Below, piece after piece: positions 12,877 to 60,682 of a stretch of 64,000 nt of DNA; position 1 is the stretch's first letter; each line of letters starts with the position of its first letter. Under the pieces are notes generated by a model. The model saw only the letters and a program-made list of their open reading frames with translations, searched no databases and was not told the DNA's origin. This stretch comes from Verrucomicrobiota bacterium (GTDB taxonomy: Bacteria; Verrucomicrobiota; Kiritimatiellia; UBA8416; JABMPJ01), in NCBI GenBank assembly GCA_018648805.1, contig JABGQM010000005.1, positions 49,433-113,432 of the forward strand. The letters run 5' to 3'. A program made the translations under genes and the position numbers.

Positions 12877-15612
12877 TTGCGACGAACACTTCCATATCTT
12901 GTTCTGCTTCTCATCATAGGGATGGGCCTCTTTTTTCGCGGTGGCGGACTCTACCGCGGCCTCGATGAGCGCAAGTACGTCTACCACCCTGACTCCCCCA
13001 AGCAGATCCAGGCCGTCAGCAATTTCCTGAAAGGGACCTATGTCTGGCGCGGCGGCAGTTGGTTTATCGATGGCTATCCCTATGGGCTCAACCACATTGA
13101 TGCCGTATTTTTACGGCCGACGCTGGCCATCTGGAAGGGCCTAAGGCCCTCGCTGGAGAAATGGCTGGGACGTGAAGAGGGCATCACGCTCAACCTCTAC
13201 CACTGGGTCCGGTCGCTACGGCTCCTCTATGGACTGGTCTCCGTTCTCCTGGTCTGCCTGGCCTGTCGCCTTCTGCGCATGGGGTGGGGGGCCTCGCTCT
13301 TTGCCGCCGCCGTAGTGGCGATCTGTCCACTCACGGTCGCCGTCTCACATTTTGCGACGGGTGATATTGGGACCGACCTTTTCATCTCGTTCATGATGGT
13401 GATGCTGGCCGCTCACCTGCGTCAGCCGCGCCGCTTCATATGGATGGCAACCGCATCGCTCTGTACCGGCATGGCGTTCTCCTGCAAATACCAGGGCATC
13501 ATGGCCGCCTTCTGCATCGCCTTCATCATCCTGGTCGAATCCATCCGCAAACGCCAGTGGCTGGGATTCTTCCTGCGCGGCGGTGGCGCAGCGCTCTGCT
13601 GCGTGGCGGGTATCCTGATCCTGAAGCCGGAACTGATCATCAATACGGCACAGGCCTGGGATGACATGATCGTCAACTTCATTCGCATCCAGAGCTACAA
13701 CGTCCCTGCGGCATTCAAGGCGCTTCCCCTGCACGCGAAGTTGGCACAGAGCTGGTCCAACAGCCTGCCACGCCTCGCCCGCGCCATGTATGCCCCGCTC
13801 ATGATCGCTACGCTGGTGTCATCGGTCCTGTTTGTGTGGCGGGTGGTAGTGCATTGCCGCTCCGGGAAACCAGCCTGTTCGGCGCGCTGGGGGCGTGATG
13901 TAGGTGCGGCCGCGATCAGCCTGCTGGCGCCGGTGGTGCTGGTGCTGGCGGTGTCAGGCAAACCCATGCTGCATCCATTTCACTTTTCCTTCCTGGTGCC
14001 CGTTATGGCCGTGGGCGTAGCGGCGCTCCTGGATGCATCGCGCGGGAGCAGGGCCTGGACACGCTATGCCGCCGGCGTATTGGGTCTGCTGCTGGTGGCG
14101 ATGATGTGGCGCGACGCGGCGCACGAGCATTTCTTCTGGGTACGTGATGATAATCTGCATATCGCCCAGACCTACGCGCGTACCGTGGCGGAGTCGCCCT
14201 ACCGCGGCGAGAAACGCGGCATAAAGTTCCTGGACTTCGAGCCGCGTTCGGCTTCGGTATTCCGTAATCGCCATCCCTGGTCGATCGTACGAATGCGTGC
14301 GCTGAACTACTGGATCGACCATCGTACGTTGCCGCTGCCGACGGTGCCGTATCCGCGTGAGGTGGATTGGATGCTCTGTAACGGTCCGGTCTTTCTTCGC
14401 AACGATCGATGTTTCAATGTGCCAGCCGATGGCCGCGCTGAGCGGGCCTTGGTTTTTCCCGAACGATGCGATCGGATTGAGCTGGGCCTGCGCAGCGGCA
14501 CCCGCCCGACCGCCGTGACGATTCGTCGTCCCACGCGTCGGGTCTGCCACACGCTGCCACCTCACTCGCAAACCACGGTCGCGATGGATACGCGGGGATG
14601 GATCCGCAGCGCGACGCGTGACCGGAGCCAGCCGGTGTGGATCCTACCGCTGGAGGTCACGGCGGAGATGGGGGATGCCTGGGTCACGCTGCTTGCGACA
14701 GCGGAGGATCGCGCTCTATTCGAACTATACGGCGGGACCATGGGAGATCCGCCTGTCGCTCTGCTGGCGCAGCATGGCAAACGCAAGGTGACTATCGCGA
14801 CACAGGGCGCTCGGTTTGTCGACTGGACCCGTTTCACAGGCGGTCTGACCCATGTCCATGAAGCCGTCATGCCGGCGGGCGTCTACCGGTTGCGGTTGAC
14901 CGCAACGTCAGAGGTGGCCGGCAGCATTCGCATCGCTGTGAAGGGCGCCGACACGCAGCTGCTCTGGGAGGGGGTCGAGACGGTCCGCCCCATCCGCCCC
15001 GGCGAGAACGCCGTTGAACTCTCTTTCAGCAAGCCATTCGCCCCGTACGAACTGCGCGTGACGATTGAGCGTGATGACGCCACGATTCGGCCCACCCGCT
15101 GTTCGATCAAGCCGCTGGGAGGGCGCATCTTCAGTGAGTTGAGCGCGTGGTGCGAGGAGGGTGTGCGTCCGGCATGGTTGTCGCCCGCGGCCGCCGCACC
15201 TCGTCCATCCGGCGAAACGCTGAAGGCAGCCCAGACCGCGTTGGGCGACACCATAATGCTGCGCACAGTCACGCTGCCGGCGACGGTGCATCAGGGCGAT
15301 AAGATTGCCGCCTATCTCGACCTGGCCCTAGCGGCTCGTATCCTGCCCGACCTGGCGAACAGCCACCTTTTCATCCATCTTGTGAATGAGGCCGGAGAGC
15401 AGGTCCATGTGGGGGGCTGCCCCCTTGCAGGAGCCCTTGCCGCATCGACCCACGGGCGCCATGTCGAGTTCGACAATCCTGTGGCGGCGCCGGCGGGAGC
15501 GTATCGCTTGCGACTAGGTGTCTGGAACAGCCGCACGGCCGAAGCGTGGTCGGTCGGGGCGGAGGGCGGCGCCACCTATATCGAACTCGGTCCGTTCACG
15601 GTCACTCCGTAG
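12877..15612 (+). CDS. GT-C fold membrane glycosyltransferase-like protein (GT39/ArnT/PMT-like N-terminus) with a large C-terminal extracytoplasmic domain
   Basis: N-terminus MRRTLPYLVLLLIIGMGLFFRGGGLYRGLDERKYVYHPDSPKQ resembles ArnT/PMT family starts. Many predicted TM helices fill the first ~430 aa. A ~450-aa soluble C-terminal domain follows. Assignment is by resemblance only. Confidence 0.5.
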   Translation: MRRTLPYLVLLLIIGMGLFFRGGGLYRGLDERKYVYHPDSPKQIQAVSNFLKGTYVWRGGSWFIDGYPYGLNHIDAVFLRPTLAIWKGLRPSLEKWLGREEGITLNLYHWVRSLRLLYGLVSVLLVCLACRLLRMGWGASLFAAAVVAICPLTVAVSHFATGDIGTDLFISFMMVMLAAHLRQPRRFIWMATASLCTGMAFSCKYQGIMAAFCIAFIILVESIRKRQWLGFFLRGGGAALCCVAGILILKPELIINTAQAWDDMIVNFIRIQSYNVPAAFKALPLHAKLAQSWSNSLPRLARAMYAPLMIATLVSSVLFVWRVVVHCRSGKPACSARWGRDVGAAAISLLAPVVLVLAVSGKPMLHPFHFSFLVPVMAVGVAALLDASRGSRAWTRYAAGVLGLLLVAMMWRDAAHEHFFWVRDDNLHIAQTYARTVAESPYRGEKRGIKFLDFEPRSASVFRNRHPWSIVRMRALNYWIDHRTLPLPTVPYPREVDWMLCNGPVFLRNDRCFNVPADGRAERALVFPERCDRIELGLRSGTRPTAVTIRRPTRRVCHTLPPHSQTTVAMDTRGWIRSATRDRSQPVWILPLEVTAEMGDAWVTLLATAEDRALFELYGGTMGDPPVALLAQHGKRKVTIATQGARFVDWTRFTGGLTHVHEAVMPAGVYRLRLTATSEVAGSIRIAVKGADTQLLWEGVETVRPIRPGENAVELSFSKPFAPYELRVTIERDDATIRPTRCSIKPLGGRIFSELSAWCEEGVRPAWLSPAAAAPRPSGETLKAAQTALGDTIMLRTVTLPATVHQGDKIAAYLDLALAARILPDLANSHLFIHLVNEAGEQVHVGGCPLAGALAASTHGRHVEFDNPVAAPAGAYRLRLGVWNSRTAEAWSVGAEGGATYIELGPFTVTP

Positions 15613-15619: not shown

Positions 15620-16408
15620 CTAATCCGCTTGCCGGGTCAGCGTGATCGTCATGGAGAACGCCATCAGACCATGCAATGGCTTGAGCAGCACGTCGTCAAC
15701 GACACGCATCGTGGGGTACATCCAGCCCGGCAGCATCTGGCGCGCCGTGAACCCCCCACTGACCAGGTAGCGCAGCGGCGTGTGTAGGCGCAGCGTCTGC
15801 AGCTTCAACTCTGGAAACGCCGCCTCGTAGCGCGCCCGGTCGCGTGCAAACACGATCCAGGGCAAGGCCTGGTTGCTGGCCGAGAGGGGGGTGCCGGGAG
15901 GCAAGGTCCAGTCGGCTGCCGTGTCAAACGGTTCGTGGTGGAAGTGTCTGAAAATGAAACGGCTGAGCAGCGTGTTGGCCGGCTCGATCGCCACCACTGT
16001 GCCGCCCGGTTTGAGGCAGCGCACACACTCGCGGAACATCGCCTCGATATCGGGGATGTGATGCATCGTGTTGATCATGCAGAAGCGATCCACCGAGGCG
16101 TCCTCAAACGGCATGGTTTCGGCGCCGAAGCATTGGTCCACATCAGGCAGCGGCAGTATATCTGAGGTAATGGCGTTAGGAATCACATCTTTGATGAATC
16201 CACCGCCACTACCCAACTCCACGATTGTGGCGGCTTCGGGGAGGTCAAGACCCTCCCGGAAGCTCGTGTAGTACTCCCCGTAGAGACGACGCAAGAAGAC
16301 CTTGTCCCGCAGGATCCTGGCATGCAGCAACGTGGTGCTGGTATCATCCGGACCCAATCCCTCCTGTTTCTCCGGCAGGACCAGAGCGCTGGGAAGCGAT
16401 GGTTTCAT
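15620..16408 (-). CDS. Class I SAM-dependent methyltransferase
   Basis: Motif I VELGSGGGFIKDV and LKPGGTVVAIEP. Start chosen at MKPSLPSAL (ATG 16408..16406, GGGGAG upstream). The longer track ORF (to 16483) overlaps the next gene and carries an odd HEGHEGHEG leader. Confidence 0.6.
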   Translation of the reverse strand: MKPSLPSALVLPEKQEGLGPDDTSTTLLHARILRDKVFLRRLYGEYYTSFREGLDLPEAATIVELGSGGGFIKDVIPNAITSDILPLPDVDQCFGAETMPFEDASVDRFCMINTMHHIPDIEAMFRECVRCLKPGGTVVAIEPANTLLSRFIFRHFHHEPFDTAADWTLPPGTPLSASNQALPWIVFARDRARYEAAFPELKLQTLRLHTPLRYLVSGGFTARQMLPGWMYPTMRVVDDVLLKPLHGLMAFSMTITLTRQAD

Positions 16409-16461
16409 GGACTGCTCCCCTTCATGCCCTTCATGTCCTTCATGGTGAAGAATCGATCCAC

Positions 16462-17793
16462 TCAAATGAACTTGATGCGCCACGCCGCGAAGAGCAGCAT
16501 CCTGAGCAGCAGTACGCCGTGGCTCCAGCGTGAGATGTTGGTGTCGCCATAGGTGCGCTCCCGGTACGTGATCGGCACCTCGACAATCTTAAGCCCCATA
16601 CGGGCACAACCGAAGATCAGGTCGAAGTCGCCAAAGGGGTCGAACTCCCCAAAGTAGTGACGGTGCGCGGCAAGCTTTTCATAGTTCTCGCGTGTCATCA
16701 CCTTGGTGCCGCATAGCGTGTCCCGGAACTGCTGACCCAGCACAAACGAGAACGCCGCCGCAAAGAACTTGTTGCCGATGATGTTGAAGAAGCGCATCGC
16801 CTCCTTCTCCATGGGATATACCAGTCGAGTGCCGTTAATGTACTCACCCTTATCGGTTCGAATGGCCTCGTAGAAGCGAGGCAGGTCTTCCGGAGGAACC
16901 GTCATGTCGGCATCCAGAATCATCAGGATGTCCTTGGTGCAGATGCCGAAACCTTTGCGCACTGCATCGCCCTTGCCTGTACCGTCCTGCTGGATCTTCA
17001 GGATAGGCATCTTATCTTTGTACTTCTCGGCCATCTCGCCGATCTTGTCCCACGTCTTGTCGGTCGAACCACCCTCCACGAAGACCAGCTCGTCGTCGGG
17101 TCCCATTCTCGGCACGCGCTGGATGATCTGCTCGATGTTCCCTTCTTCATTCCGGGCTGCCACAACGATCGACACGCTTGGGGCCGTCTCAGGTTCGGTG
17201 ACCGGCCACAATGGCCTCGCCAGGGCAATGTTGACCAGGCAGAGATGCCGGATGCCGGGCAGGGGCGCTATGAAGCGGTTGACCAGGTAGCTGATGATTG
17301 GGATGTACACCGGCAGCAGGACGCGACTCTCGCACCGCACGAGCTGGTAGTCGGAGATGAGCAGCATGTTTGTGATGTCGTCGTGTGTGATCCAGTTGCT
17401 CTCGGGGGTCTTGCTACGCACGCCGAGAGCCGAGGCCAGCGCGACCAGCGGCCGCCACAGCGAGCTGTAATAGGTGATCACGACACGTGTCGCCGGAGAG
17501 GTGTTCGACCGGATGTCCTGCAACAGCTTCTGGATATCGCGCTCACGGTGCAGCGTGCCGTTAAGCAGCACGAAGTCGGGTGCCTCCTTGCTCAGCTCCT
17601 CGACAGCGGCCAGGCGTTTGACGGCGGCATCTGCGGCCAGCGGCGTTGCGCTTTCGGCACGCTCCAGAACCGCACTCTGCGGGTAGCGACTGATGATGAT
17701 GGCGTTGGGCGGATCCACCTCGACCAGCCGGTCTTCCGGGCGCACGTAGAGTGAGATGTAACGGTATAGTAGTTTGTAGAGGTAGTTTCGCAT
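16462..17793 (-). CDS. GT2 glycosyltransferase, polyprenyl-phosphate sugar synthase-like (DPM1/GtrB/ArnC type), with an N-terminal extra domain and a C-terminal TM region
   Basis: GT2 signature VSIVVAARNEEGNIEQIIQRV...DELVFVEGGSTDKT...ILDADMTVPPEDL (DxD). C-terminal hydrophobic tail GVLLLRMLLFAAWRIKFI is typical of Dpm1/GtrB-like enzymes. Confidence 0.65.
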   Translation of the reverse strand: MRNYLYKLLYRYISLYVRPEDRLVEVDPPNAIIISRYPQSAVLERAESATPLAADAAVKRLAAVEELSKEAPDFVLLNGTLHRERDIQKLLQDIRSNTSPATRVVITYYSSLWRPLVALASALGVRSKTPESNWITHDDITNMLLISDYQLVRCESRVLLPVYIPIISYLVNRFIAPLPGIRHLCLVNIALARPLWPVTEPETAPSVSIVVAARNEEGNIEQIIQRVPRMGPDDELVFVEGGSTDKTWDKIGEMAEKYKDKMPILKIQQDGTGKGDAVRKGFGICTKDILMILDADMTVPPEDLPRFYEAIRTDKGEYINGTRLVYPMEKEAMRFFNIIGNKFFAAAFSFVLGQQFRDTLCGTKVMTRENYEKLAAHRHYFGEFDPFGDFDLIFGCARMGLKIVEVPITYRERTYGDTNISRWSHGVLLLRMLLFAAWRIKFI

Positions 17794-17807: not shown

Positions 17808-18995
17808 TTAGGGTGACTCGTGAATCAGATAACGTGCGGCCAGCGCCTGGTAGCCGGCGCGGGCCTGTTTCTTCAGAGTGGCCACCCGCGTGGTCCAGGC
17901 CGGTCGGAGCTCCCCGTCGTTGGCGCTGAGTCGTTGCACCTGGGCCGCCAGTCCAGCAGCGGAAAAATCCGCCAGCTCGATCAACGACTCGGGGGTGCCC
18001 ATCAGCTCCATGAAATGGCGCACCTTGGGCGCATAGGCCAGGCCGATGCAGGGCACATCCATGGCCGCCGCCAGGATGAGTGAGTGCAGGCGCATGCCCA
18101 CAAAATAGCGCATGCGCCCCATGGTTCCCATCAGCTCCTCAGAGGAGTACCGACCGTTGTCGAGCACAGCCACGCGGTCGCGACGGTTGACGTGTGCGAG
18201 GACCCCCTCGGCGTAGGCAATATCCATGATCTGGGTCACGACCAGCACCACGCGGCAGTCCTGCTCTTCAATCAGCAGGTCGACCGCTCTGGCCAGCTCC
18301 GCAGCAAACTGGGTGCCGTCAATTCCCTCCGACTTCTTGAGCCACTGGTCGACGTAGCTGTTGACGTTGATCCCGATCAGCGGCTGCGCCGTGTCGGCCA
18401 GGCCGTTTTCCTTCAGGATCTCGTCCACCCGTTCCTCACCGGCGGGCGGATCCACAAAGGCGGCATCCGCATAGACCTCAATCCGCTCGGACGGAATGCC
18501 CACCGATTCGAGCAGTGTCTTCGAGTCGTTCTCGCGCACCCAGATCGCGTCACAACGGTCGCACACAAAGCGTGCACATTTCTGGCCCAGCCGACTATCG
18601 AGCGGTCCGATGCCCACCAGGAAACAGATCACCGGTTTGCGGAACAGTCGCGCCAGCGGCACGACGAACACCAGCAGGATCAGGAAGTTGAAAATCGGGT
18701 TGAGCAGCTTGACGTCAAAGATGATACCGTCGGTGATCAATACCGCATCGGATCGTTTGATCGAGCAGGCGGTGGTCCACCCGATGAAGCGCAGGCTCAA
18801 GTTCCACGGCATCATCGGCACGCCGCGCACCACATCCGACGGATAGCGGCGACTGATATCGCGCTTGCGTGGGGCCGGTACCTCGAAGCGCGTCCCGGGC
18901 GCCTGCTCCAGCGTGTTGTGTATAATTGAGGAGAGAATCGCCGCATCGCCGGCATTTCGCCCCGAGTTCGAGCCCAGTACACAGAGTGTTGCCAT
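17808..18995 (-). CDS. Polysaccharide pyruvyl transferase family protein
   Basis: N-terminus LCVLGSNSGRNAGDAAILSSII (G..GN.GD motif). C-terminal YFVGMRLHSLILAA..VPCIGLAYAPKV matches the WcaK/CsaB-type family pattern. Confidence 0.65.
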   Translation of the reverse strand: MATLCVLGSNSGRNAGDAAILSSIIHNTLEQAPGTRFEVPAPRKRDISRRYPSDVVRGVPMMPWNLSLRFIGWTTACSIKRSDAVLITDGIIFDVKLLNPIFNFLILLVFVVPLARLFRKPVICFLVGIGPLDSRLGQKCARFVCDRCDAIWVRENDSKTLLESVGIPSERIEVYADAAFVDPPAGEERVDEILKENGLADTAQPLIGINVNSYVDQWLKKSEGIDGTQFAAELARAVDLLIEEQDCRVVLVVTQIMDIAYAEGVLAHVNRRDRVAVLDNGRYSSEELMGTMGRMRYFVGMRLHSLILAAAMDVPCIGLAYAPKVRHFMELMGTPESLIELADFSAAGLAAQVQRLSANDGELRPAWTTRVATLKKQARAGYQALAARYLIHESP

Positions 18996-19016: not shown

Positions 19017-20015
19017 CTACAGCAGCCCTTCCGTGCGGTACCATTCGGCCGTGCGGCGAATGCCCTCGGCCAGGCTCACGCCCGGTGTATAGCCGATCGT
19101 CTGACGCGCCTTATCAATCTTGAAAGCACGGCTCTTTGTGAAGAAGTCGACTCGGCGCCGGTAAATCGGCGGCGGAATCCGCAGCGGTACGCAGACCTTC
19201 TCCACCACCGTGCCGAGCAACTGGATCGGCCAGGCCGGGATGTGCAGCTTTGGCGGCGGTACGCCCAAGGCGTCGGCGATGATTCTGAACAGCTCGTTGA
19301 GCGGCACGTACTCCTCGCCGGCCACGATAAAGAGTTCGCCGTCGGCGGTATCCGATTCCATGCCGCGGATGAAGCCCTCCACCAGGTCGTCGATATAGAC
19401 GGTGTGAAATGTGGGTTTGCCGCTGCCGATCACAAAGAAGCGCCGCTTGGCGATCATGCTGAACAATTTGAGCAGCCGCAGGTCGCCGGGTCCGTAAATC
19501 GAAGCGGGCCGAATCACCGTGCCACGCAGGCGGCCCGAGCGGAACGCCTCGAGGGCCAACTTCTCGCCTTCCATCTTGGTGACCTGGTAGATGTCGCCCG
19601 GGTTGTAGGGCGTCTCTTCGTCGGCCGGCGGATTGGCAATATGGCCGCATACCCCGATCGTGCTGCAGTGCACCATCTTCTCAACCCCGGCTTCAACCGC
19701 GGCATCAATCAGCAGCGTGGTCGCATCGCGGTTGATGCGGGTGTACTCCGCGTCGGGCACATTGGCCCGCCGGAACAGCGCCGCAATGTGGAAGAGGTAG
19801 CCGCAACCTTTCACGATGCGGGTACAATCCTCTGCCAGGCCCACATCGGCTTCGACCACTTCGACCCCAGCCTCCATCAGCTCTGCGGTGTCGCTGTTGC
19901 CCCCGGGCCGCACCGTGCCGCGCACCGTGTAACCCTCGTGCGCCAGCCGCAAGGCCAGTGCTTTACCTGTGAACCCGGCCGCGCCGGTCACCAAAATCTT
20001 ACGGTCTTTATCCAT
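19017..20015 (-). CDS. NAD-dependent epimerase/dehydratase (SDR family, sugar-nucleotide modifying)
   Basis: Rossmann motif KILVTGAAGFTGKALALRL. Catalytic YQVTKMEGEK (YxxxK). Length 332 aa. Confidence 0.75.
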   Translation of the reverse strand: MDKDRKILVTGAAGFTGKALALRLAHEGYTVRGTVRPGGNSDTAELMEAGVEVVEADVGLAEDCTRIVKGCGYLFHIAALFRRANVPDAEYTRINRDATTLLIDAAVEAGVEKMVHCSTIGVCGHIANPPADEETPYNPGDIYQVTKMEGEKLALEAFRSGRLRGTVIRPASIYGPGDLRLLKLFSMIAKRRFFVIGSGKPTFHTVYIDDLVEGFIRGMESDTADGELFIVAGEEYVPLNELFRIIADALGVPPPKLHIPAWPIQLLGTVVEKVCVPLRIPPPIYRRRVDFFTKSRAFKIDKARQTIGYTPGVSLAEGIRRTAEWYRTEGLL

Positions 20016-29480: not shown

Positions 29481-29504
29481 GCTCTTTCCGACCAGGGGGA
29501 GATT

Positions 29505-29610
29505 CAACGCCCAACAACCAACGCCCAACAACCAACTTCCAAGGGAAGACGAACGTTCTGTGCCTCCCTACTTGGATGTTGGGCGTTGGATGTTGGATGT
29601 TGGAGGTTCA
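29505..29610. repeat. Long imperfect inverted repeat (predicted stem-loop) with nested small palindromes, in the divergent intergenic region
   Basis: Left arm caacgcccaacaaccaacgcccaacaaccaac contains a 15-nt direct repeat. Right arm ggatgttgggcgttggatgttggatgttgg pairs with it at ~21/23 positions. The loop contains cttcc-aag-ggaag and the perfect palindrome gaacgttc. Confidence 0.5.
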
Positions 29611-32254: not shown

Positions 32255-32290
32255 GTTCCGGACCTTGACTTGGCCTTGGGCTGTGACATT

Positions 32291-33187: not shown

Positions 33188-33188
33188 T

Positions 33189-34388: not shown

Positions 34389-34406
34389 TTCAAGGCGGAT
34401 GCACGA

Positions 34407-35138: not shown

Positions 35139-35156
35139 GTGTATCATGGGAGATGG

Positions 35157-37492: not shown

Positions 37493-37507
37493 TGTGCGCC
37501 CTCTGAG

Positions 37508-43690: not shown

Positions 43691-43845
43691 CTCTTGCATT
43701 ATGGGCCAATCCGGCAGCCCCATCAAGGTGTCGTTGTGCCCGTTGTATATCTTGGGCTGGCAATCCCTCGCCTCTCGGGTGATACTTCGCCCGTATTGAA
43801 GTGGGAGTCTGTTGTTGAATCCGTGTGCAGAGCGTATATGAGTAG

Positions 43846-48392: not shown

Positions 48393-48396
48393 ACGC

Positions 48397-52019: not shown

Positions 52020-53058
52020 GGCCGAACTGCTCATGCATGTTTCGGCTTGCCGTGTGTCCGAGCCGCTGCTTCAGGTCTGCGTCATCCAAGAGCCGCGTGA
52101 CGGCCTCAGCCAGAGCGGAGGTGTCCCCCGGAGGCACTAGAAGACCTGTCTGCTCGTGCTGCACGACTTCGGGAATGGCGCCAATGCGCGAGGCGATGAT
52201 GGGCTTGCTGAACGAGGCGGCTACGAATGGGATGCTGCTCTGGCTGGCTTCAAGATAGGGCGCCAGGGCAATCGAACATCGCTCAAACAGCGCCGCGCTC
52301 TCGGCATCCGAGACAAACCGGTTGATCACCTCGATGCGGTCACCCAGTTGCGCTATCGGGGCGGCGTAGGGGGTCAGGTCGCCTTGTCCGGCCAGGATAA
52401 GCTTGGCATCGGGCTGGTGTTCGAGAATATCGGGCATGGCTTCCAGAATCGTGCGGATGCCCTTGTACTCCCGCAGGCGGCCGTACAGGAGAAGGGTGTT
52501 GGGCTCCTCGGCAATGCCCGTACGCCACGGCTCGAAGACATCATGAAAGGCCATGGGTGTCACGCACACGCGCGCCGGTGCCAAGTGCCACTTGGCGAGT
52601 GCCAATTCGCGTAGTTTTTCGCTGTGCACGGTAATGATGCGGCTGTGTTTGAGCAGTGGGGCCAGCTTCATGCGGTCGAACGGACGCGGCTCACCCAGGT
52701 GCGGGTCGATGTCATGAATGGTCGATACCATGGGGTAACGGCGTGCCAGGGCACCCAGGAAAAGCCCATAGAGAATGTGGCCGCTGTTGACGTGAATGAT
52801 ATCGGGCTGCCAGTGGTGAATGTCGCGTACGATACGGTGTACCAGCATGGGTGCCGCCAGGTAGCGCAGCAGTTCACCGAGTGTGGCCCACTGCGGCACA
52901 CCGTAAGTGAAGGATCGACTGGCGCTGGACAAATGCTCGTCTGAAACGCCTCTTGGAAGGAAACATGCGACCTCATGGCGCGGTCGCAAGGCGTGCGCCA
53001 GGCTGCTGGCATAGTGCGCCATTGCACCCACATGTAGACTGAGAATAGCTACCCGCAT
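51880..53058 (-). CDS. Glycosyltransferase family 4 (group 1)
   Basis: MRVAILSLHVGAMAHYASSLAHALRPRHEV and a typical GT4 C-terminal half (...LLYGRLREYKGIRTILEAM...EVINRFVSDAE...). The 3' end overlaps the convergent gene by ~140 nt. Confidence 0.65.
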   Translation of the reverse strand: MRVAILSLHVGAMAHYASSLAHALRPRHEVACFLPRGVSDEHLSSASRSFTYGVPQWATLGELLRYLAAPMLVHRIVRDIHHWQPDIIHVNSGHILYGLFLGALARRYPMVSTIHDIDPHLGEPRPFDRMKLAPLLKHSRIITVHSEKLRELALAKWHLAPARVCVTPMAFHDVFEPWRTGIAEEPNTLLLYGRLREYKGIRTILEAMPDILEHQPDAKLILAGQGDLTPYAAPIAQLGDRIEVINRFVSDAESAALFERCSIALAPYLEASQSSIPFVAASFSKPIIASRIGAIPEVVQHEQTGLLVPPGDTSALAEAVTRLLDDADLKQRLGHTASRNMHEQFGPTVVRDRLETVYRRAMSRTERGRHRQAHPQTPSRTPEPAGTCKRPC

Positions 53059-54288
53059 TCAGTTCTCCCGTATAGCACTCACGTGGGCCGCGTAACGCGA
53101 CCAGATGGAGGCCCAGTCATAGGCCTCGGCCGCAACACGGCAGGCGGCGCCCAGGGCCCGCCGCCGCTCTGGTGCATCGATCAGTGCTTCGAGGGCTGCG
53201 CGCAGGGCCTCCGGTTGGGCCGGCGGCACCAGCATTTCGGCCAGCTCGCCCTGTAGCACCTGCGGAATATCACCCACGGGGGTGGTCAGGCAGGGCAGAC
53301 CCGAGGCCATTGCCTCCATCAAGGCCAGTGGCAACCCCTCCTGCTGCGTTGGCAACACAAAGATGTCGGCTGCGCGCAGTTCGGGGGCCAGCACCTCCTC
53401 GTCGGCCAGCCCTTTGAGTGTCATGGTGCCCTGCAGCCCGGCCTTATCAATCTGCTCGCGTAAGACCGATTCGTACGGCCCGGATCCGTAGACATCTGCC
53501 TGCAGGCGTGCCCGCGTCCCGGCCGGCATACCCGCAATGGCTTCAATCAAGTGCTGAATGCCCTTGCGCTCGATCAATTGGGCCACCGTGATCAGCCGGA
53601 TGGTGCTGTCATCGCGGGCGTCGCCCTCTGTGGCGGGGTGAAATACGCGCGTATCGACCCCGTTCGGAATCACGCCGAACTCGCGTGAGGGTAGCGTCTG
53701 TTTCGCCAGATCGGCCAGCGGGGAGCTTACGGCGCTGACGTGGGCCGCGCGGCGCCAGACATAGCGTGCCACCGCCCGCATGATCGGATGCAGCAGAGCG
53801 AAACGGCCCGGCTGGTAGCCCGGCACATCCGAGCCCTGTAGCACGGTGATGAAGGGGGTGCCGTAGCGCCGCGACCAAGCCGCCCCCAGCAAGCCGGCCG
53901 GCATGGTGAAGACCGCTATGATGGCTTGCGGGTTCAGCTTGTCTTCCAGCGCGGCCATGTGGCGGCGTCCGGACCGGTAAAACGCGAGAAGCTCCAACAC
54001 CGAGTGGCGCGTCCAGTTCTTTTTGGGGCAAGGGATGCGGTGGACATCGACCCCGTTGCGCTGCTCCTCGGCCGGCAGGCGCCCCCCGATGTCGGAAGTC
54101 AGCACGCTGACAGCGTACTCGCCCGAGGCTGCGGCCTGCTCGGCAATGGCTGCCGCCGCACGCTCAGCTCCACCGTAGTAGGGGGGGTAGCCCTGGCAGA
54201 TTACGAGCAGGCGCGTCTGTGCCTCGCGCGGCTGTGTTGACGCCGCCGGCTCAGGCGTCGTCGGTTGCATCTTCTTCTCGGCGCTCAT
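53059..54288 (-). CDS. Glycosyltransferase family 4 (group 1)
   Basis: LLVICQGYPPYYGGAERAAAAIAE (GT4 N-terminal motif) and a C-terminal EGLPLALMEAMASGLPCLTTPVGDIPQVL (E-x7-E-like region). Confidence 0.7.
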   Translation of the reverse strand: MSAEKKMQPTTPEPAASTQPREAQTRLLVICQGYPPYYGGAERAAAAIAEQAAASGEYAVSVLTSDIGGRLPAEEQRNGVDVHRIPCPKKNWTRHSVLELLAFYRSGRRHMAALEDKLNPQAIIAVFTMPAGLLGAAWSRRYGTPFITVLQGSDVPGYQPGRFALLHPIMRAVARYVWRRAAHVSAVSSPLADLAKQTLPSREFGVIPNGVDTRVFHPATEGDARDDSTIRLITVAQLIERKGIQHLIEAIAGMPAGTRARLQADVYGSGPYESVLREQIDKAGLQGTMTLKGLADEEVLAPELRAADIFVLPTQQEGLPLALMEAMASGLPCLTTPVGDIPQVLQGELAEMLVPPAQPEALRAALEALIDAPERRRALGAACRVAAEAYDWASIWSRYAAHVSAIREN

Positions 54289-55195
54289 GATCCTCCCAGA
54301 ACAGGCTGGTCTGGGAACTCATTTCCTTGCGGAGCGAAGCAATCTGGTCCCCGAGCAAACCAAAGTGAAAGATGATGATACCGGCCAGGAGCGATAGGAT
54401 CGCGCCACCTTCGATATGCATGCCCCATTTCGCAAAGATGTAGGCCTGGTAGAGCACGCCGATAGCCATCAGGCCTATGGCCGGATACCCGAAGGCGCGC
54501 ATCGGGTCGAACAGCATCATCAGGCGCAAAGAAAGTAAGAGTGTCTTCATGCCGTCATACACGATGCGCACCGTGCTTGACCCCTTACGCGGGTGCACGA
54601 TCACTGGTACGAAGATTGTGGAGAAACGGCTGCGCATACCGAACATAAGCGAGGTGGTTGAGAACGAAAAGCCATCCGGCAACAGATCCAGCATCTGCAT
54701 ATAGATGCGTCGCCGCCCACCGCGCAGGCCGCAGTTGATATCCGGAATCTTGCGCGCGGCCAGGAAGTTGCAGACCCAATGTAGAATCCATTTTCCCGGT
54801 CGCCGCACCATCGGTACCCCGGCATGCTTGGCGCGCTCGCCGAAGACCATCTCGTGGTCTTTGAGCGCGTCGATCAAGGCCGGCAGGTTGCAGGGATCAT
54901 GCTGGCCGTCGCTGTCGAGAAAGATAACGTTCAGCGCCCGCGTGGCGCGGATGCCAGTCTTGAGCGATGCCCCGTAGCCGTGGTTGGAGGGATGCCGGAT
55001 CACGCGGATGCGGTCACCGAACCCCTGCAGCACTTCGCTGGACCCATCCTCCGAGGCATCATCCACCGCGATCACATCACAGGGCTGACCCGCCACGGCA
55101 TCCAGTACCCCCTGAATCACATCCCCGACGGCCTCGGCTTCATTGTAGACCGGGATAATAATGGCAAACTGGTTTGAATCCTTGGGTGTGGTCAA
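54251..55195 (-). CDS. GT2 polyprenyl-phosphate glycosyltransferase (GtrB/ArnC/DPM1-like) with two C-terminal TM helices
   Basis: FAIIIPVYNEAEAVGDVIQGV...VIAVDDASEDGS...IFLDSDGQHDP. C-terminal TM region LLLSLRLMMLF...ILSLLAGIIIFHFGLLGDQI. Confidence 0.7.
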   Translation of the reverse strand: MTTPKDSNQFAIIIPVYNEAEAVGDVIQGVLDAVAGQPCDVIAVDDASEDGSSEVLQGFGDRIRVIRHPSNHGYGASLKTGIRATRALNVIFLDSDGQHDPCNLPALIDALKDHEMVFGERAKHAGVPMVRRPGKWILHWVCNFLAARKIPDINCGLRGGRRRIYMQMLDLLPDGFSFSTTSLMFGMRSRFSTIFVPVIVHPRKGSSTVRIVYDGMKTLLLSLRLMMLFDPMRAFGYPAIGLMAIGVLYQAYIFAKWGMHIEGGAILSLLAGIIIFHFGLLGDQIASLRKEMSSQTSLFWEDHERREEDATDDA

Positions 55196-55289: not shown

Positions 55290-57926
55290 TTAGCCTGCCG
55301 GTGCTCTTTCAAGTTCTTTCCGCAGGGCGGCGGCCACCGTCGCAACATACGCGTCATGCAGGATGGTCGTGTGTTCACCGGGGATGTCGACATAATCGAT
55401 CCCTGCGCAGAGCCGGCGCCATTCGTGCTTCCACGCCTCCCGCATCCCCTCGCCGGATGATCTGAAGTAGGTGACCCGGCCGGGATAACGGCGGGCAATA
55501 TAGCGCCAACGCGCCTGCATATGTGCCGTGCGAATGCGTTCGTGTGGGTCAATGGCCATCAGTGGGTGGGGGGCGTTGCACGGACCTGTTGCCAGTGGCT
55601 CCCGATTCTCGCCCCGGGTCTTGCGAAACAGGTGCCTGTATGCGTGGGCGGCGACCCGTAAGGTGCCGTAGTAGCACTGTTTCATGTTGCGTATGGGGTC
55701 TGCCTGGGGTCGCTTGTTGCGCCCCTTGAGTGTATATCCGGGCGGCATGCGGGAGTCCAGCACCGCCAGCAGGTGTATCGGCATCTCCGCGGCATGAAGC
55801 TGTTGCGCCATTTCGAAGGCCACGACACCTCCCAGGCAGCGTCCTCCAATATAGTAGGGCCCGTGCGGCTGAACGTCGCGCATGGCCCGGACGTAGTGGG
55901 CCGCCATGTCTTCGATCCGATTCTGCGGCGGTAACCGTCCGTCGATACCTGCAGGTTCAAATCCGTAGACAGGGCGGTCGCACCCCAGGTGCAGGGCCAA
56001 TGATCTGAACCCCAGTGTGCTGCTGGCGGCAGGCGGAACCAGGAAGAGGGGCGGCAACGATCCCTGTGGCTGAAGGACCACCAGGCCATCGGATGCCGCC
56101 GGTGCCTCCTTCGATCGAATGATGTCTGCCTGGGCCGCGACGGTAGGTGCATGAATCAACGTGGTCATGGGCAGTTGCATGCCGAATACGTGCTCGATGG
56201 CGGCAAGGATCTGTACGGCATGCAGCGAGTCGCCGCCGAGATCGAAGAAATGGTCATCTGGACCGACGTATGGAATGCCCAACGTCTGCTTCCACATCTC
56301 GGAGAGGTCGTGTTCCACACTGCCTTTGCCGATGACCGTGGACCTGGTTGTGGCTGGCGGTTCGGGAAGATCCGGAAGCGCATTTCGATCAATCTTGCCC
56401 GTCGACGTCAGCGGCAGCGCCGCGACCGCGATGAAGCGGGAGGGCACCATGTATTCCGGGAACCGCTCGTGCAGCAGGTGCCGCAGATCGGTTGTTAGCA
56501 GGTGTTCTGGTTCATTCTCAACCAGGTAGGCGACCAGGCAGAGGTCGCCATTCTGGTCCTTGCGGGGCACGACCGCCACATGGTCGATCGATGCTGTATT
56601 TCTGATGGCTGTTTCGACCGCGCCTGTTTCAACGCGGAACCCGCGAATCTTGACCTGGTCATCCTGTCGTCCCGTGTATACCAGGCAGCCATCTTTACGT
56701 TGTCGTCCCCTGTCGCCTGTGAAATAGGTTCGCGCATTAGCCCCCGTGGCGGCGGGGCGGAATTTGGCGCGCGTCAGTTCTGGCCGGTTCCAGTAGCCCG
56801 GCGAAAGAAAACGGCTTTCCACGACGAACTCGCCGACGGTGCCCGGCGGCACGATCGCCCCATTGCTGTCCCGGACGGTGACGACCTTGCCTCGATGTGC
56901 ATACCCCACCGGGAGGTCGCTGCCCTTCAGCACGTCCTGGCCATGCAGAGCATACTGCGCATAGCTCAGTGTCTCGGTGGCGCCAATGTTGTTGATGAAG
57001 GTCGATGTTACAGGGAAGTGCTGTCGCCACACCTCTATGTCGCGCGTGGTGACCCTTTCGCCTCCCAGCCAGCACAAGCGCACGTCCGGGAACTGCTTGC
57101 CACGGGGGAGCGTGGCCGCCAGGAGGCGGAATAGGGTGGGTATACATCGCAGAAAGGTAATGCGCGCTTCAAGTAGCCATGCCGCCAGGTGGGCCAGTCC
57201 ATCCTGTGCCACATCGTAGGGATGTATCGATGCCCCGCACAGCAGGGCGCACAAGATCGTCCCCTGTGCGGAGATCGAGCCTGGTGTATGTAGCATCGAG
57301 AGGCGGTCATCGGCAGAGAGGGCCAGCCGGTCCTGCAAACAACGAACCGATTGCAGATAGGTGCGGTGACTATGAATCACGCCCTTGGGGGTGCCCGATG
57401 AACCCGATGTATAGATGATGATGGCCGGGTCGTCGGGGGCAATGGAGCGGTCCGGGTCTGGGAGGGCATCGGTCTTTGCGATGTCATCAATATTGATAAC
57501 CCGTGTCTGTGGGGATGTCACTCGCGCGGCGGTCATCATCGTTCTTGAGTTGCAGAGCAGGACTCGCGCACTGACATCGTTCAGAATCCGCATCAGGGCG
57601 GTGTCGGGGTCTGTCGGGGTGACGGGCACGGAAATCTTGCCGGCCTTCCATATTCCCCATGCGGCACAAACATAATCACAGCCAAGAGGCAGCAGTGCGA
57701 CGACCGGGTGGCGACCGGCATCGGTCTCGGCAAGAAGGGCGCCGGCAATCCTGTTGGCCTCTCCGTTGAGCTCGGCGTAGCTCAGTGTGCGTTCGCCGTC
57801 CCGAACGGCCAGCCGGTGCGGATGCCGCCGTACCTGCTCCTCAAACGGCTGCACGAACGAGGATCCTGTTTCGCGGTCCTCGACGGTCTCGATCTGGTGG
57901 GGCCAATCTGATCTGGCAGCAGTCAT
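55290..57926 (-). CDS. Stand-alone NRPS-like tridomain protein: adenylation (AMP-binding) domain, carrier (PCP/T) domain, and a thioesterase/alpha-beta hydrolase domain with Cys in the nucleophile position
   Basis: A-domain core motifs LSYAELNGEANRIA, IIYTSGSSGTPKGV, YTGDRGRQRKDGCLVYTGRQDDQVKIRGFRVE. Carrier motif FFDLGGDSLHAVQI. TE-like PLFLVPPAASSTLGFRSLALHL...YYIGGRCLGGVVAFEMA, where Cys replaces the usual Ser in the G-x-S-x-G position. Confidence 0.75.
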   Translation of the reverse strand: MTAARSDWPHQIETVEDRETGSSFVQPFEEQVRRHPHRLAVRDGERTLSYAELNGEANRIAGALLAETDAGRHPVVALLPLGCDYVCAAWGIWKAGKISVPVTPTDPDTALMRILNDVSARVLLCNSRTMMTAARVTSPQTRVINIDDIAKTDALPDPDRSIAPDDPAIIIYTSGSSGTPKGVIHSHRTYLQSVRCLQDRLALSADDRLSMLHTPGSISAQGTILCALLCGASIHPYDVAQDGLAHLAAWLLEARITFLRCIPTLFRLLAATLPRGKQFPDVRLCWLGGERVTTRDIEVWRQHFPVTSTFINNIGATETLSYAQYALHGQDVLKGSDLPVGYAHRGKVVTVRDSNGAIVPPGTVGEFVVESRFLSPGYWNRPELTRAKFRPAATGANARTYFTGDRGRQRKDGCLVYTGRQDDQVKIRGFRVETGAVETAIRNTASIDHVAVVPRKDQNGDLCLVAYLVENEPEHLLTTDLRHLLHERFPEYMVPSRFIAVAALPLTSTGKIDRNALPDLPEPPATTRSTVIGKGSVEHDLSEMWKQTLGIPYVGPDDHFFDLGGDSLHAVQILAAIEHVFGMQLPMTTLIHAPTVAAQADIIRSKEAPAASDGLVVLQPQGSLPPLFLVPPAASSTLGFRSLALHLGCDRPVYGFEPAGIDGRLPPQNRIEDMAAHYVRAMRDVQPHGPYYIGGRCLGGVVAFEMAQQLHAAEMPIHLLAVLDSRMPPGYTLKGRNKRPQADPIRNMKQCYYGTLRVAAHAYRHLFRKTRGENREPLATGPCNAPHPLMAIDPHERIRTAHMQARWRYIARRYPGRVTYFRSSGEGMREAWKHEWRRLCAGIDYVDIPGEHTTILHDAYVATVAAALRKELERAPAG

Positions 57927-58030
57927 GCGGCGTATCGTAAGGTCCGGCGCCCTAAATGCCAGCGTTGTTTTGTGCGCCTCCCTCGATTCGTCTTAACCGC
58001 GTGGCGGGGATGTGATACATAGTCGACATC

Positions 58031-60682
58031 ATGGTTGTGATTGGACTCATCGCGGCATTGTGGGCCGTTATTCTGGCAGCGGTCGCACGCATTGTGGCCG
58101 GCAACTTTGATGCCGCTGTGATGCGCAAGGGCTATGCAGGCGTCGTGTTGTTGCTTCTGGCGCTGGCATCCATCGCCTATTTTCGGCCGCATGAAGACGT
58201 CTTTGGCGGACAGGACCAGGGCGCTTACATCAATGCCGCCGTGACCTTCGCCCGTACCAAAACGTTGAAGCACGTCGATCCGCTCTTGGACGTAGTGCCC
58301 GAAGCACAACGTACCGGTTTCCACTACCGCAGTTCCCTCAGCGGGTTACCCACTTTGGCACATGTTTTGCGCCTTGAAGCCGTTGACTCCGCTAGACAGG
58401 TGCCGTGGTTTCAGCCCTCCTTTTCCTTGATATTGGCCCTGCCCGCCCTGTGCGGCTGGAGCGATGGGGTACTCTATGTCTCGCCACTATTAACACTCTT
58501 GATTGCCCTGGCCCTGTGGGGGCTGGCCCATCAACTTTGGGCGGGCCGTAGTGCGGGACTCATTGCGGCGGCCACGTTTCTTGCGTCGCCACTGCTTCTC
58601 TGGCATGGCCGTAATGCGCGCGCTGAACTGCCCGCTCTGCTGTTTTTGGTCTGTGGCGCTTCGTTGCTGCTACAGGCCATCCGGCCGAGGCCAGGGCGTC
58701 GGTCGTGGGACTGGGCACTTGCCGGGCTCTGTTTTGGCCTGGCCCCACTGTCGCATATTACCGCGGCCCCCATGTCGCTCTTGGCGGGACTGGTCCTGCT
58801 CGTGTTGATTCGCCGGGGACACAGGCATGGCTGGTTGGCTCTCGCGTTCCTGGTTGCGATGGCGCTGCTCTTTGTGGGGCAAACCCTCTGGATCACCGAC
58901 CCCTACGGCTTGGCCGGGGCCTTGCGTGTGTGTGGGCAGCATAGTGGACTATGGATAGTGTTGTTGGGCGCCATTACGGTCGGGGCTGCTATGCTTGCAT
59001 TGCCTCTACCCCTTGCAGTGGCCGTTGCGCGGCGGACGTGGCTTGTTCCGGCCTTACAGTGGGGGCTGGCCATTGTCGGGGTGGGGTGGTTGTTCGCGGT
59101 CGCTCGGATCGGCCCCAATCGTCTGTTCGGTGCCGGGAGCGCCTTGCGCATTGTCGGATTGGCAGACCTGGCTGGGTTTGTCGAAATCGCCGGTCCTGCA
59201 GCAGCGATCTGCATGTTGCTTGGGTGGTTGGTCTTGGTGTTGGGGTCGGGGGCCGGGTGGGCTCGGCGTGTAGCTGTTGCCGTCATTCTACTGCCCTGTG
59301 CCACGCTCGGTGGCGTAATATCCTCCGGCCTGCTCTACGGATCACGCTACATGCTGATTGCCATCGCGCCACTCGCCGCGCTCAGCTTGGTAGGGCTTTT
59401 CATGTGGCTGCAGTCGTGGTCGTGCCGCTGTCGCTGGTGTCGCTGGTGTTTAACCGGTTTCGTCGCACTGGCCTGTCTGTGGGGGGTGTATGCCCAGCGC
59501 CCCCTGCTATTCGAACGCGACTATCCCGGACTCAACGCCTTCATCCGGCGTGTTGCCGCGCCCATGCGAGGGGGTCTGGTTTTGTGCGAGTACTCACGCG
59601 TGGCGGCCCCGCTGAAATACTTGGCCGGCCTCGATCTGTTGGGCATCGACAGCGAGACTCAGCGTGACTACACAGCCATTGAGATTGGGTGGGCCGGTAT
59701 TATGGTCGCCCATCCGGGTCGCGCGGCCTACTTTGTAACCCCCTATGCCACCCCGCCGCTCAGCGAGCGGTTCACGTTCGAGCCCAAGGGCATCTTTACC
59801 TATAGCGGAGCACGCCTCCGCTCGGGTGCGAGCGAGGTCGATGCTGCGAGTTCTCCGCTGACCAAACAGCTCCACGTCTACCGTATGCACCCACCCACGC
59901 CGCCGGCCAATCCGACGCAACCCTTTACGCGCGCTATCCCGCCCATCAGCAGCATGGGGCTGCGCCGCTTCCATGATAACCGCATGGTCGGCCCCAATCA
60001 GCGCGGCATTGTCGTGCCCGTCAGGCCTGCCCCCCCGCTGCGCATCGGGGCGCTCAGCTCTCCCTCGGCCCCGGTCCGGATTGGGCTCGTACTCGTTAGC
60101 GATACCGCACCGTGTCTTACCGATGCGACGGCAGCCCCCATTCAGGTCCTTCCGCTGCAGCCCCCCTGGTGGCTGGCCGTGGCAGATCAGACCACCTTGG
60201 CGGAGGGGCTGAGCTCTGCCCCGGCCGGTCCGGCCGTGCGGCTGGTAGATGTCTGGAAACTGGGTGCCACACCGCAGCCGCTGACCAACTGGGCGGATGG
60301 ACTCGAACTTCAGGCGGTCGATCTGCCCTCCACCCCAGGCCGTTGGATGGCACAGGGAGCCGAGATTCTTCTCCCGGAACGGGCGTCTGGCACCCTTTTT
60401 GCTTTGTTAATCAAAGTGCGTTCCGCTGATGATGCCGTGGATCCACGTTTGCGGCTGACGGTTGCAGGAGGGGGCTCCCGTGTTTTTGCACTGGATCCCG
60501 CTAGCGGAGCGATGAGGTGGTATTTTGTCAACAGTGAGAATGGAAAGGAATCCGACCTGGATTACAGATGGGTGCGTATGGCCATGCGTCCGCCTTACCG
60601 GGTGCGGATCGGACGCTCCATGGGCGCACGCGTCGGTGTGCTGGCGGCGGCCTGCTCACTGCCCTTGACAACAGAGCCATGA
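58031..60682 (+). CDS. Large polytopic membrane protein (putative GT-C-like) with a C-terminal soluble domain
   Basis: N-terminus MVVIGLIAALWAVILAAVARIV. More than 12 TM helices across ~500 aa, then a ~350-aa soluble region. Contains an unusual CRCRWCRWC run. Confidence 0.45.
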   Translation: MVVIGLIAALWAVILAAVARIVAGNFDAAVMRKGYAGVVLLLLALASIAYFRPHEDVFGGQDQGAYINAAVTFARTKTLKHVDPLLDVVPEAQRTGFHYRSSLSGLPTLAHVLRLEAVDSARQVPWFQPSFSLILALPALCGWSDGVLYVSPLLTLLIALALWGLAHQLWAGRSAGLIAAATFLASPLLLWHGRNARAELPALLFLVCGASLLLQAIRPRPGRRSWDWALAGLCFGLAPLSHITAAPMSLLAGLVLLVLIRRGHRHGWLALAFLVAMALLFVGQTLWITDPYGLAGALRVCGQHSGLWIVLLGAITVGAAMLALPLPLAVAVARRTWLVPALQWGLAIVGVGWLFAVARIGPNRLFGAGSALRIVGLADLAGFVEIAGPAAAICMLLGWLVLVLGSGAGWARRVAVAVILLPCATLGGVISSGLLYGSRYMLIAIAPLAALSLVGLFMWLQSWSCRCRWCRWCLTGFVALACLWGVYAQRPLLFERDYPGLNAFIRRVAAPMRGGLVLCEYSRVAAPLKYLAGLDLLGIDSETQRDYTAIEIGWAGIMVAHPGRAAYFVTPYATPPLSERFTFEPKGIFTYSGARLRSGASEVDAASSPLTKQLHVYRMHPPTPPANPTQPFTRAIPPISSMGLRRFHDNRMVGPNQRGIVVPVRPAPPLRIGALSSPSAPVRIGLVLVSDTAPCLTDATAAPIQVLPLQPPWWLAVADQTTLAEGLSSAPAGPAVRLVDVWKLGATPQPLTNWADGLELQAVDLPSTPGRWMAQGAEILLPERASGTLFALLIKVRSADDAVDPRLRLTVAGGGSRVFALDPASGAMRWYFVNSENGKESDLDYRWVRMAMRPPYRVRIGRSMGARVGVLAAACSLPLTTEP

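Follow-up and report, generated by a model that had tools for sequence, protein, structure and literature searches.

A glycan island of a Kiritimatiellia bacterium encoding seven polytopic GT-C-like membrane proteins and two polyprenyl-phosphate-sugar-synthase-type GT2 enzymes

A 64,000-nucleotide stretch of contig JABGQM010000005.1 (hereafter the window), part of a metagenome-assembled genome of a Verrucomicrobiota bacterium of the class Kiritimatiellia (GCA_018648805.1), contains a 48-kb island (positions 12877-60682) that is probably the biosynthesis locus of a heavily decorated surface or extracellular polysaccharide, extended or glycosylated outside the cytoplasm from polyprenyl-phosphate sugars. 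The island encodes seven long polytopic open reading frames (ORFs), lettered here A to G in coordinate order, and two glycosyltransferases (GT) of the GT2 family of the polyprenyl-phosphate-sugar synthase type. An earlier reading of the same DNA, made from the sequence only, had proposed extracytoplasmic glycosylation by GT-C enzymes fed by DPM1/GtrB-type synthases, and this view is supported by predicted folds, by family matches and by the type of the donor synthases.

Seven polytopic proteins and their relation to GT-C glycosyltransferases

All seven large membrane proteins of the sequence-only reading were present, with the same starts, in the ORF map; all lie on the plus strand and all are intact. 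A (12877-15612, 911 residues) is a probable PMT_2-like GT-C with a soluble tail of about 525 residues, and B (20186-22816, 876 residues) is probably also a GT-C, from an unnamed family, and shares its C-terminal domain with E. C (22813-24972, 719 residues) is a predicted GT-C-fold protein of another unnamed family, followed by D (24972-27296, 774 residues), a PMT_2-family GT-C with a weakly discoidin-like (F5/8 type C) C-terminal domain. E (29717-32254, 845 residues) combines a predicted GT-C fold with a C-terminal beta-sandwich resembling a carbohydrate-binding module (CBM), F (35969-37492, 507 residues) is an ArnT/PMT_2-like GT-C that comes from a very small family and ends in a short tail, and G (58031-60682, 883 residues) is a possible GT-C, the least certain of the seven, with a soluble tail of about 420 residues. 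The longest ORF for D begins at 24885, upstream of the start at 24972, and that for E at 29411, the NCBI-called product P0025 being the 845-residue form of E. Homologues from other assemblies indicate that B, C, D, E, and F are real genes. For A and G only identical copies were recovered, still as ORFs of 880-910 codons. Single-protein scans with B against genomes and with G against metagenomes returned no relatives beyond the source contig, and because such scans gave no relatives, no homologue set could be built for A or G. The all-against-all BLASTP comparison of the seven proteins found no pair below E = 0.1, indicating that they are not recent paralogues.

A Kyte-Doolittle scan showed that each protein starts with a region of 7-13 hydrophobic segments, the last of which ends near residues 385, 436, 499, 377, 650, 382, and 460 of A to G, respectively. 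The non-hydrophobic tail that follows measures 210-525 residues in six of the seven proteins and about 120 in F. The proposed common plan of a membrane part of 400-560 residues and a soluble beta-rich domain therefore stands in part: a membrane module with a tail is found in all seven, but F lacks a large soluble domain, and the membrane part of E, at about 650 residues, exceeds the range because about four extra helices precede the canonical GT-C core. In the models, C carries a similar N-terminal addition. As read from the secondary-structure listing of the models, the extra helices would span residues 17-131 of C and 16-154 of E, upstream of the helix preceding the conserved acidic loop. 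For C and E the models show a beta-rich tail (residues 624-715 and 719-843, respectively). The E tail is predicted to form a beta-sandwich that matches carbohydrate-binding modules, and the C-terminal domain of B aligns with that of E (hhalign, 95%), while that of D gave a weak, discoidin-like match (F5_F8_type_C, E 1.4e-3). The tails of A and G resemble none of the domains compared. One lectin domain common to all seven was rejected, as hhalign of the tails found no shared pair other than B and E; the proteins thus share an architecture, not one lectin domain. The lectin-like C-terminal domains anticipated earlier are consequently limited to E by fold, to B by its profile match to E, and weakly to D.

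The GT-C-like character of the proteins is borne out by fold for C and E, by Pfam for D and through relatives for F, while A, B, and G gave weak matches, almost all of them to GT-C families. The helices are explicit in the structure models of C and E, and both models show the GT-C fold, with AftD and AftA among the top structural matches of C. No Pfam match was found for C, E, or F, and C lacked any direct family match. E matched the NCBIfam entry 'LA_3751/LA_3752 putative glycosyltransferase' (LA3751_2_3) with E 2.7e-7; this family alone was found in NCBIfam for E, F, and G, far under its cutoff. D belongs by its sequence to the PMT_2 family, being the sole one of the seven above the Pfam gathering threshold (31.5-31.6 against 26.1 bits). 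B, C, E, and G gave no PMT_2 match of their own, and neither did F itself. F has 53 relatives among 1.84 billion representative proteins. PMT_2 was matched by 14 of the 33 aligned relatives (best E 2e-15), and the extended profile of these 33 sequences reached ArnT (5ezm) with E 1.5e-10, collinear over positions 13-402 (~390 residues), with the E-E pair of F on D-E of ArnT and the FHKPPL motif of F on FEKPPF. We regard the predicted GT-C nature of F as well supported, if indirectly.

Profile comparisons connected most of the remaining members. In hhalign, the extended F profile aligned with D (95.8%), E (92%), C (86.5%), and A (43%). The membrane domain of B aligned with F (80% over 370 columns), D (79%), and C (66%), and G was matched by the D profile at 68% and by the E profile at 64%. 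Together with the family matches discussed below, this makes A and B probable GT-C proteins by sequence, and G a possible one. Searches of PDB sequences with D (phmmer) and with the profiles of C, E, B, and strict F gave no meaningful match, so solved GT-C structures are reached by sequence only through the extended F profile.

Five of the families have an invariant or near-invariant acidic residue just after the relevant helix. These are D65 of B, invariant and in the loop following the first transmembrane (TM) segment; D168 of C, within Y-R-x-D-H-P; D42 of D, after TM1 and invariant in 12 orthologues; D203/E204 of E, within G-G-D-E-P-x-Y-L; and E33/E34 of F, where E33 is invariant and accompanied by the F-H-K-P-P-L motif. 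Candidate acids seen in single sequences are D30-E31 of A, after its first helix, and E55-D56 and D62 of G, after a TM helix. The conserved acids would lie on the periplasmic side and may act in catalysis. Since none of the seven proteins matched a transporter family at E ≤ 0.01 and conserved Asp/Glu residues are present, the alternative raised in the sequence-only reading, namely unrelated transporters devoid of the acidic residue, does not hold. A transporter-family identity was rejected for each of the seven, the non-GT-C matches being at chance level only (MerC 0.016, Vps55 0.033).

Donor synthases, gene order and distribution

Two GT2 genes of the polyprenyl-phosphate-sugar synthase type, likewise proposed from the sequence, are present on the minus strand, and their products are closest, among solved GT2 enzymes, to DPMS, ArnC, and GtrB. 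The first (54251-55195, 314 residues, Glycos_transf_2 E 4e-28) has the GtrB/ArnC architecture, a GT-A domain with a C-terminal TM hairpin. Among PDB sequences it aligned over its full length with ArnC (3.1e-12) and GtrB sll0501 (5.7e-7), and also with the Pyrococcus dolichyl-phosphate-mannose (Dol-P-Man) synthase (7e-11); the alignment to ArnC and GtrB extends through residue 296, with a hydrophobic pair at ~230-282 ending in GLLGDQIA. In NCBIfam it matched AglJ (2.6e-27) and PpgS (2e-18). The second (16462-17793, 443 residues, Glycos_transf_2 E 3.6e-21) matched the Dol-P-Man synthase 5mlz best (7.2e-16) and ArnC with 5e-11; it carries an N-terminal extension of ~200 residues with one TM segment before the catalytic domain, and has no C-terminal hairpin. 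For both proteins the top NCBIfam ranks were AglJ, Dol-P-hexose transferase, ArnC, and PpgS, and sequence comparison thus identifies both as ArnC/DPM1/GtrB-type donor synthases.

At both junctions of the B-C-D series the stop codon of one gene overlaps the start codon of the next, as GTGA between B and C and as TGATG between C and D. Downstream, a same-strand run (29717-41953) comprises E, Wzm- and Wzt-like exporter genes, two unmatched proteins, F, a sulfotransferase, a GT2-GT4 fusion, and a pyruvyl transferase. Homologues of C occur in 50 species-representative genomes, mostly of Kiritimatiellia, Lentisphaerota/Victivallales, and Verrucomicrobiota, with a few in Bdellovibrionota, Rokubacteria, Omnitrophota, and Desulfobulbaceae. 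Of the loci in which the sequence continues for 2 kb or more beyond C (33 in all), 13 have a full-length D homologue directly after C, and seven more have a partial D-like match in that place. B and the divergent upstream genes for a pyruvyl transferase and an SDR epimerase are syntenic in four loci (L006/L011 and L007/L037, 57-74% identity), where the epimerase orthologues are 73-74% identical; in L006 a methyltransferase and the epimerase form one fusion protein. In Victivallales-type relatives the gene immediately before C encodes a GT2 of 238 residues; in L007/L037 (9259-9975) it is preceded by B, and L004 (9260-9976) has no B. This GT2 shows ~27% identity to the 54251 GT2 of the window, in which this position is empty and B and C overlap.

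The loci around C homologues contain 2-5 large polytopic ORFs within at most 22 kb. Seven, described earlier as an unusual number for one locus, is indeed the highest count seen, yet the window is three times longer than the compared loci, and clustering of several polytopic genes appears to be typical of loci of the Planctomycetes-Verrucomicrobia-Chlamydiae (PVC) group, given the 2-5 such genes found in each.

Other genes of the island and its flanks

The neighbouring genes are almost all glycan-related. On the minus strand, between A and B, are encoded an S-adenosylmethionine-dependent methyltransferase (15620-16483, Methyltransf_11 E 1.5e-11), a polysaccharide pyruvyl transferase (17808-18995, PS_pyruv_trans E 1e-29), and an SDR-type NAD-dependent epimerase/dehydratase (19017-20015, Epimerase E 5.7e-34). 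A sulfotransferase (27293-27997, Sulfotransfer_2 E 1.1e-20) and an FrhB/FdhB-like iron-sulfur flavoprotein (28092-29531, FrhB_FdhB_C E 8.6e-31, with Fer4 domains), also on the minus strand, separate D from E; homologues of the flavoprotein were found near C homologues in L012-L015. The putative glycan exporter, on the plus strand, consists of a Wzm-like ABC-2 permease with at least 4 TM segments (32270-33187, NCBIfam galactan export permease Wzm/RfbD 2e-6, KpsM 1e-4) and a Wzt/TagH-like ATP-binding subunit (33129-34388, ABC_tran E 1.5e-18, NCBIfam teichoic-acid export ATPase 2.8e-52, galactan Wzt/RfbE 3.6e-50). All scores of both subunits are under the equivalog cutoffs, and the likeness of the permease is weak. 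Two soluble proteins with no Pfam or NCBIfam match and no TM segment (34407-35138 and 35139-35972, plus strand) lie between the exporter and F. The remainder of the run encodes a probable sulfotransferase (37508-38302, plus strand, Sulfotransfer_3 E 2e-4, below cutoff), a GT2-GT4 fusion, a cytoplasmic Leloir glycosyltransferase probably serving backbone synthesis (38299-40770, plus strand, Glycos_transf_2 E 3.5e-34, Glyco_trans_1_4 E 5.4e-19, TuaG-like 2.5e-29), and a second polysaccharide pyruvyl transferase (40562-41953, plus strand, PS_pyruv_trans E 1.8e-23), the true start of which is probably after 40562. Two unmatched ORFs follow on the minus strand (41958-43726). Overall, seven ORFs of 179-926 residues had no Pfam or NCBIfam match (167-4354, 34407-35972, 41958-43726).

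Two acylation modules on the plus strand come next. In the first, the MBOAT acyltransferase (43846-45294, MBOAT E 2e-33, 67% identity to copy 2) is separated from its AlgX/SGNH-like partner (47349-48392, ALGX E 6.8e-16, 47% identity to copy 2 with the alignment starting at copy-2 residue 56) by a DDE-type insertion sequence (IS) transposase on the minus strand (45602-47239). AlgX-like copy 1 is shorter than copy 2 by ~54 N-terminal residues, including the membrane anchor of the latter, and next to the transposase this suggests that the insertion may have truncated or uncoupled copy 1; a search around the transposase for terminal inverted repeats gave no convincing pair. An FkbM-type methyltransferase (48124-49170, plus strand, Methyltransf_21 E 4.6e-19) precedes the second module (49338-52019), composed of an MBOAT protein (49338-50774, E 4.2e-31) and an AlgX/SGNH-like protein (50775-52019, ALGX E 3.5e-16). 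The latter converges with the first of two minus-strand GT4 Leloir glycosyltransferases (51880-53058 and 53059-54288, Glycos_transf_1/Glyco_transf_4, E 1e-25 to 1e-28) in a 3' overlap of 140 bases, which is unusually long and may reflect a mis-called end or a frameshift. Beyond the 54251 GT2, an adenylation-carrier-thioesterase protein, a stand-alone module resembling those of nonribosomal peptide synthetases, is encoded at 55290-57926 (minus strand, AMP-binding E 2.2e-61, PP-binding 4.1e-15, Thioesterase 8.3e-22; amino-acid adenylation domain 2.3e-85, DltA-like 2.4e-60), and its homologues also occur near C homologues in L009, L021, and L023. The two MBOAT and AlgX/SGNH pairs near this protein recall the logic of DltA/DltC/DltB/DltD, and together they may attach an amino acid or another acyl group to the glycan by an ester bond.

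Both flanks of the island carry genes for large surface proteins with FG-GAP, MBG, and fibronectin-III domains (4362-12773 and 60774-62543). FG-GAP proteins are also encoded near C homologues in L004, L010, L034, and L054, and in L008, the copy of the source contig, a second FG-GAP paralogue follows the first. The GC content is ~0.54-0.66 across the region, without a sharp boundary at the island edges.

Proposed assembly route, alternatives and comparison with known systems

According to the route we favour, the Leloir enzymes (the GT2-GT4 fusion and the two GT4 proteins) would assemble a lipid-linked polymer in the cytoplasm, where pyruvyl-, sulfo-, and methyltransferases would modify it before export by the Wzm/Wzt ABC transporter. 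The two ArnC/DPM1/GtrB-type GT2 enzymes would charge polyprenyl phosphate with monosaccharides; once these donors are flipped across the membrane, each GT-C would serve its own position of the exported glycan and transfer the sugar there. Outside the cytoplasm the glycan would gain side branches or be extended, much as mycobacterial arabinan is assembled and as O-antigen three-component systems work, with the C-terminal glycan-binding domains holding the acceptor. B, C, and D would be a co-translated unit, C and D probably acting as a pair. Judging from the gene content, the exported polymer is most likely sulfated, pyruvylated, and acylated. The scheme presumes the GT-C status of A, B, and G, as well as the membrane topology, the identities of donors and acceptors, the order of steps, and any complex between C and D.

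Several observations weigh against this reading. The direct family matches of three members are sub-threshold: PMT_2 for A (E 5.4e-5, 23.9 bits), PTPS_related (8e-4) and DUF6541 (7e-3) for B, and for G the Pfam PMT family (E 5.3e-3, 16.8 bits against a cutoff of 22.7) and LA3751_2_3 (0.015). Enlarging the B family with paralogues from the fetched loci left the matches under threshold (DUF6541 2.9e-6 for an orthologue, PTPS_related 8e-4, PMT_2 2e-3 for a relative), all to families that we take to be members of the Pfam GT-C clan. A profile built from close F relatives only did not reach ArnT, so the link between F and ArnT is a transitive one. Both GT2 proteins score far under all NCBIfam equivalog cutoffs (AglJ 96-110 against 325 bits, ArnC 50 against 529), and for this reason the enzyme type is supported without naming the sugar. 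No donor flippase (GtrA, SMR, MATE) was found among window ORFs of at least 150 residues, and the intergenic gaps are too short for another gene; a flippase may be encoded elsewhere. The window likewise showed neither an initiating phosphoglycosyltransferase nor a ligase. Two donor synthases stand against seven transferases, which implies that donors are shared or made elsewhere in the genome. Sharing of donors among GT-C enzymes is established in mycobacterial arabinan synthesis. Finally, the genes, which lie on both strands, make up nine or more transcription units, with an IS transposase among them, and the locus therefore need not be one pathway.

This last point leads to a reading in which the island is a partly coincidental mosaic, separate glycan loci joined by rearrangement or IS activity, with some of the seven proteins being inactive GT-C-fold relics or scaffolds. 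Besides the division into transcription units, the transposase at 45602-47239 and the duplicated MBOAT/AlgX modules would fit such a history, as would the absence of detectable relatives of A and G and the fact that elsewhere only the B-C-D block and its pyruvyl transferase and epimerase neighbours are syntenic. We nevertheless find it very improbable, as all seven ORFs are intact, the acids are conserved wherever the families can be aligned, the intervening genes are glycan-related or without known function, and the GC content shows no step at the island limits.

Different acceptors or donors can also be envisaged. Some or all of the GT-C proteins could glycosylate proteins in the manner of PMT-type O-mannosyltransferases, with the flanking FG-GAP/MBG proteins as candidate targets; the sequence-only reading had suggested the neighbouring giant adhesin as a possible acceptor. 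D, A, and relatives of F match PMT_2/PMT families, and large FG-GAP proteins border the island and accompany C homologues elsewhere. However, ArnT-like enzymes with lipid and glycan substrates also belong to PMT_2, none of the seven proteins gave a MIR match and G does not reach the PMT-domain cutoff, the tails of E and B resemble glycan-binding modules, E and F lie within the exporter gene run, and FG-GAP neighbours were found in only 4 of ~50 loci; protein acceptors are thus unlikely, and a polysaccharide acceptor is favoured because of the glycan-binding domains and the exporter run. Slightly less likely still is the en bloc transfer, by one or more of the seven, of a polyprenyl-diphosphate-linked oligo- or polysaccharide in the manner of an oligosaccharyltransferase, ligase, or polymerase, for instance to fix the exported polymer to its final anchor. 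Structural similarity to STT3B/AglB is no greater than that to ArnT, ALG12, or the Aft enzymes, and Pmt4 scores equally well; no Pfam STT3 or Wzy_C match was found, and the island encodes two dedicated synthases of monosaccharide donors. C does contain an invariant D-Y-Y-G-F at 568-572, modelled in a region of low confidence (pLDDT below 50); with neither WWDYG nor a Pfam STT3 match, an oligosaccharyltransferase identity of C found no support.

Within the favoured route, extracytoplasmic glycosylation of an exported polysaccharide, a more far-reaching and rather doubtful version is also conceivable. B, C, and D would form a conserved GT-C trio with coupled translation, C and D being a heteromeric pair like EmbA-EmbB or Pmt1-Pmt2. 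Joined by A, E, F, and G, the trio would use one or two polyprenyl-phosphate sugars to polymerise or branch an entire extracytoplasmic glycan domain, a line of the mycobacterial arabinan style building a sulfated polysaccharide in a PVC-group diderm; a new GT family would then be founded by each of B, C, E, and F.

To our knowledge, almost nothing is known of how the decorated exopolymers of Kiritimatiellia, Lentisphaerota, and Verrucomicrobiota are synthesized. Such polymers, sulfated ones among them, matter for marine and sediment carbon cycling. The mechanism and the architecture described here are established elsewhere, and the conceptual surprise is for that reason moderate; the novelty lies in how many GT-C proteins there are, in their unannotated families (B, C, E, and F, none of which has a usable model), and in the conserved C-D pair of PVC-group genomes, with its translational coupling. 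As this locus shows, GT-C proteins missed by standard annotation account for a large part of the glycosylation potential of such clusters. With C, E, and F lacking any Pfam match and B having sub-threshold matches only, extracytoplasmic glycosylation is probably under-counted in these phyla. The C-D pair, present in at least 13 genomes, the candidate catalytic residues, and the CBM-like domain fused to a GT-C are concrete targets for further work. Characterised enzymes would probably define new CAZy families, and could reveal if diderm bacteria possess a periplasmic assembly line of many GT-C enzymes like that of mycobacteria.

The known systems closest to the island include the O-antigen three-component systems, GtrA/GtrB/GtrC of Shigella and Salmonella and that of Citrobacter youngae, which pair a polyprenyl-phosphate-sugar synthase with a GT-C acting after export of an ABC-transporter-dependent polysaccharide, as proposed for the island. 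In C. youngae, a GT-C (GT136 ORF12) has a C-terminal CBM that binds the unmodified ABC-exported polymer, and EmbA/B/C and AftD are mentioned as other GT-C proteins with CBMs (PMC11127046). By architecture, ORF12 as described there resembles the island proteins in having a GT-C membrane module followed by a C-terminal beta-sandwich glycan-binding domain. The SDR epimerase of the window could act on a nucleotide sugar or, like Citrobacter ORF13, on a lipid-linked donor. In contrast to the three-component systems, the island encodes two synthases and, in place of one GT-C, seven from unrelated families; the window showed no gene for a flippase, and sulfation, pyruvylation, and acylation genes are interleaved. 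The resemblance to ArnC/ArnT is limited by scores far under the ArnC equivalog cutoff (50 bits against 529) and by the absence of the other Arn pathway genes, and the large C-terminal domains of the island proteins have no counterpart in ArnT.

In the synthesis of mycobacterial arabinan and arabinogalactan (EmbA/B/C, AftA-D, decaprenyl-phosphate-arabinose), many GT-C proteins, some with carbohydrate-binding domains, likewise share one or few lipid-linked donors to build a branched extracytoplasmic glycan. C has AftD and AftA among its best structural matches, and EmbA-EmbB offers a precedent for paired GT-C proteins. Unlike mycobacteria, the host of the island is a diderm of the PVC group, its synthases are GT2 enzymes of the DPM1/ArnC type and not dependent on phosphoribosyl pyrophosphate, no DprE1/E2 was seen, and no sequence-level relation to Emb or Aft proteins was detected. 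Closer in lineage is Pontiella sulfatireligans F21 (Kiritimatiellae), in which a putative cluster for a sulfated glycosaminoglycan-like exopolymer contains yfhO, an undecaprenyl-phosphate (Und-P) mannosyltransferase-type GT2, and gtrA beside a sulfotransferase (PMC7356697). Compared by published gene content, this cluster of the same broad lineage has in common with the island GT2 and GT4 enzymes, a methyltransferase, a sulfotransferase, a YfhO-type membrane protein, and a GT2 of the Und-P mannosyltransferase type. It differs in having one YfhO and a GtrA-like protein; in the island the GT-C candidates number seven, no GtrA is seen, and an ABC exporter, pyruvyl transferases, and MBOAT/AlgX pairs are present.

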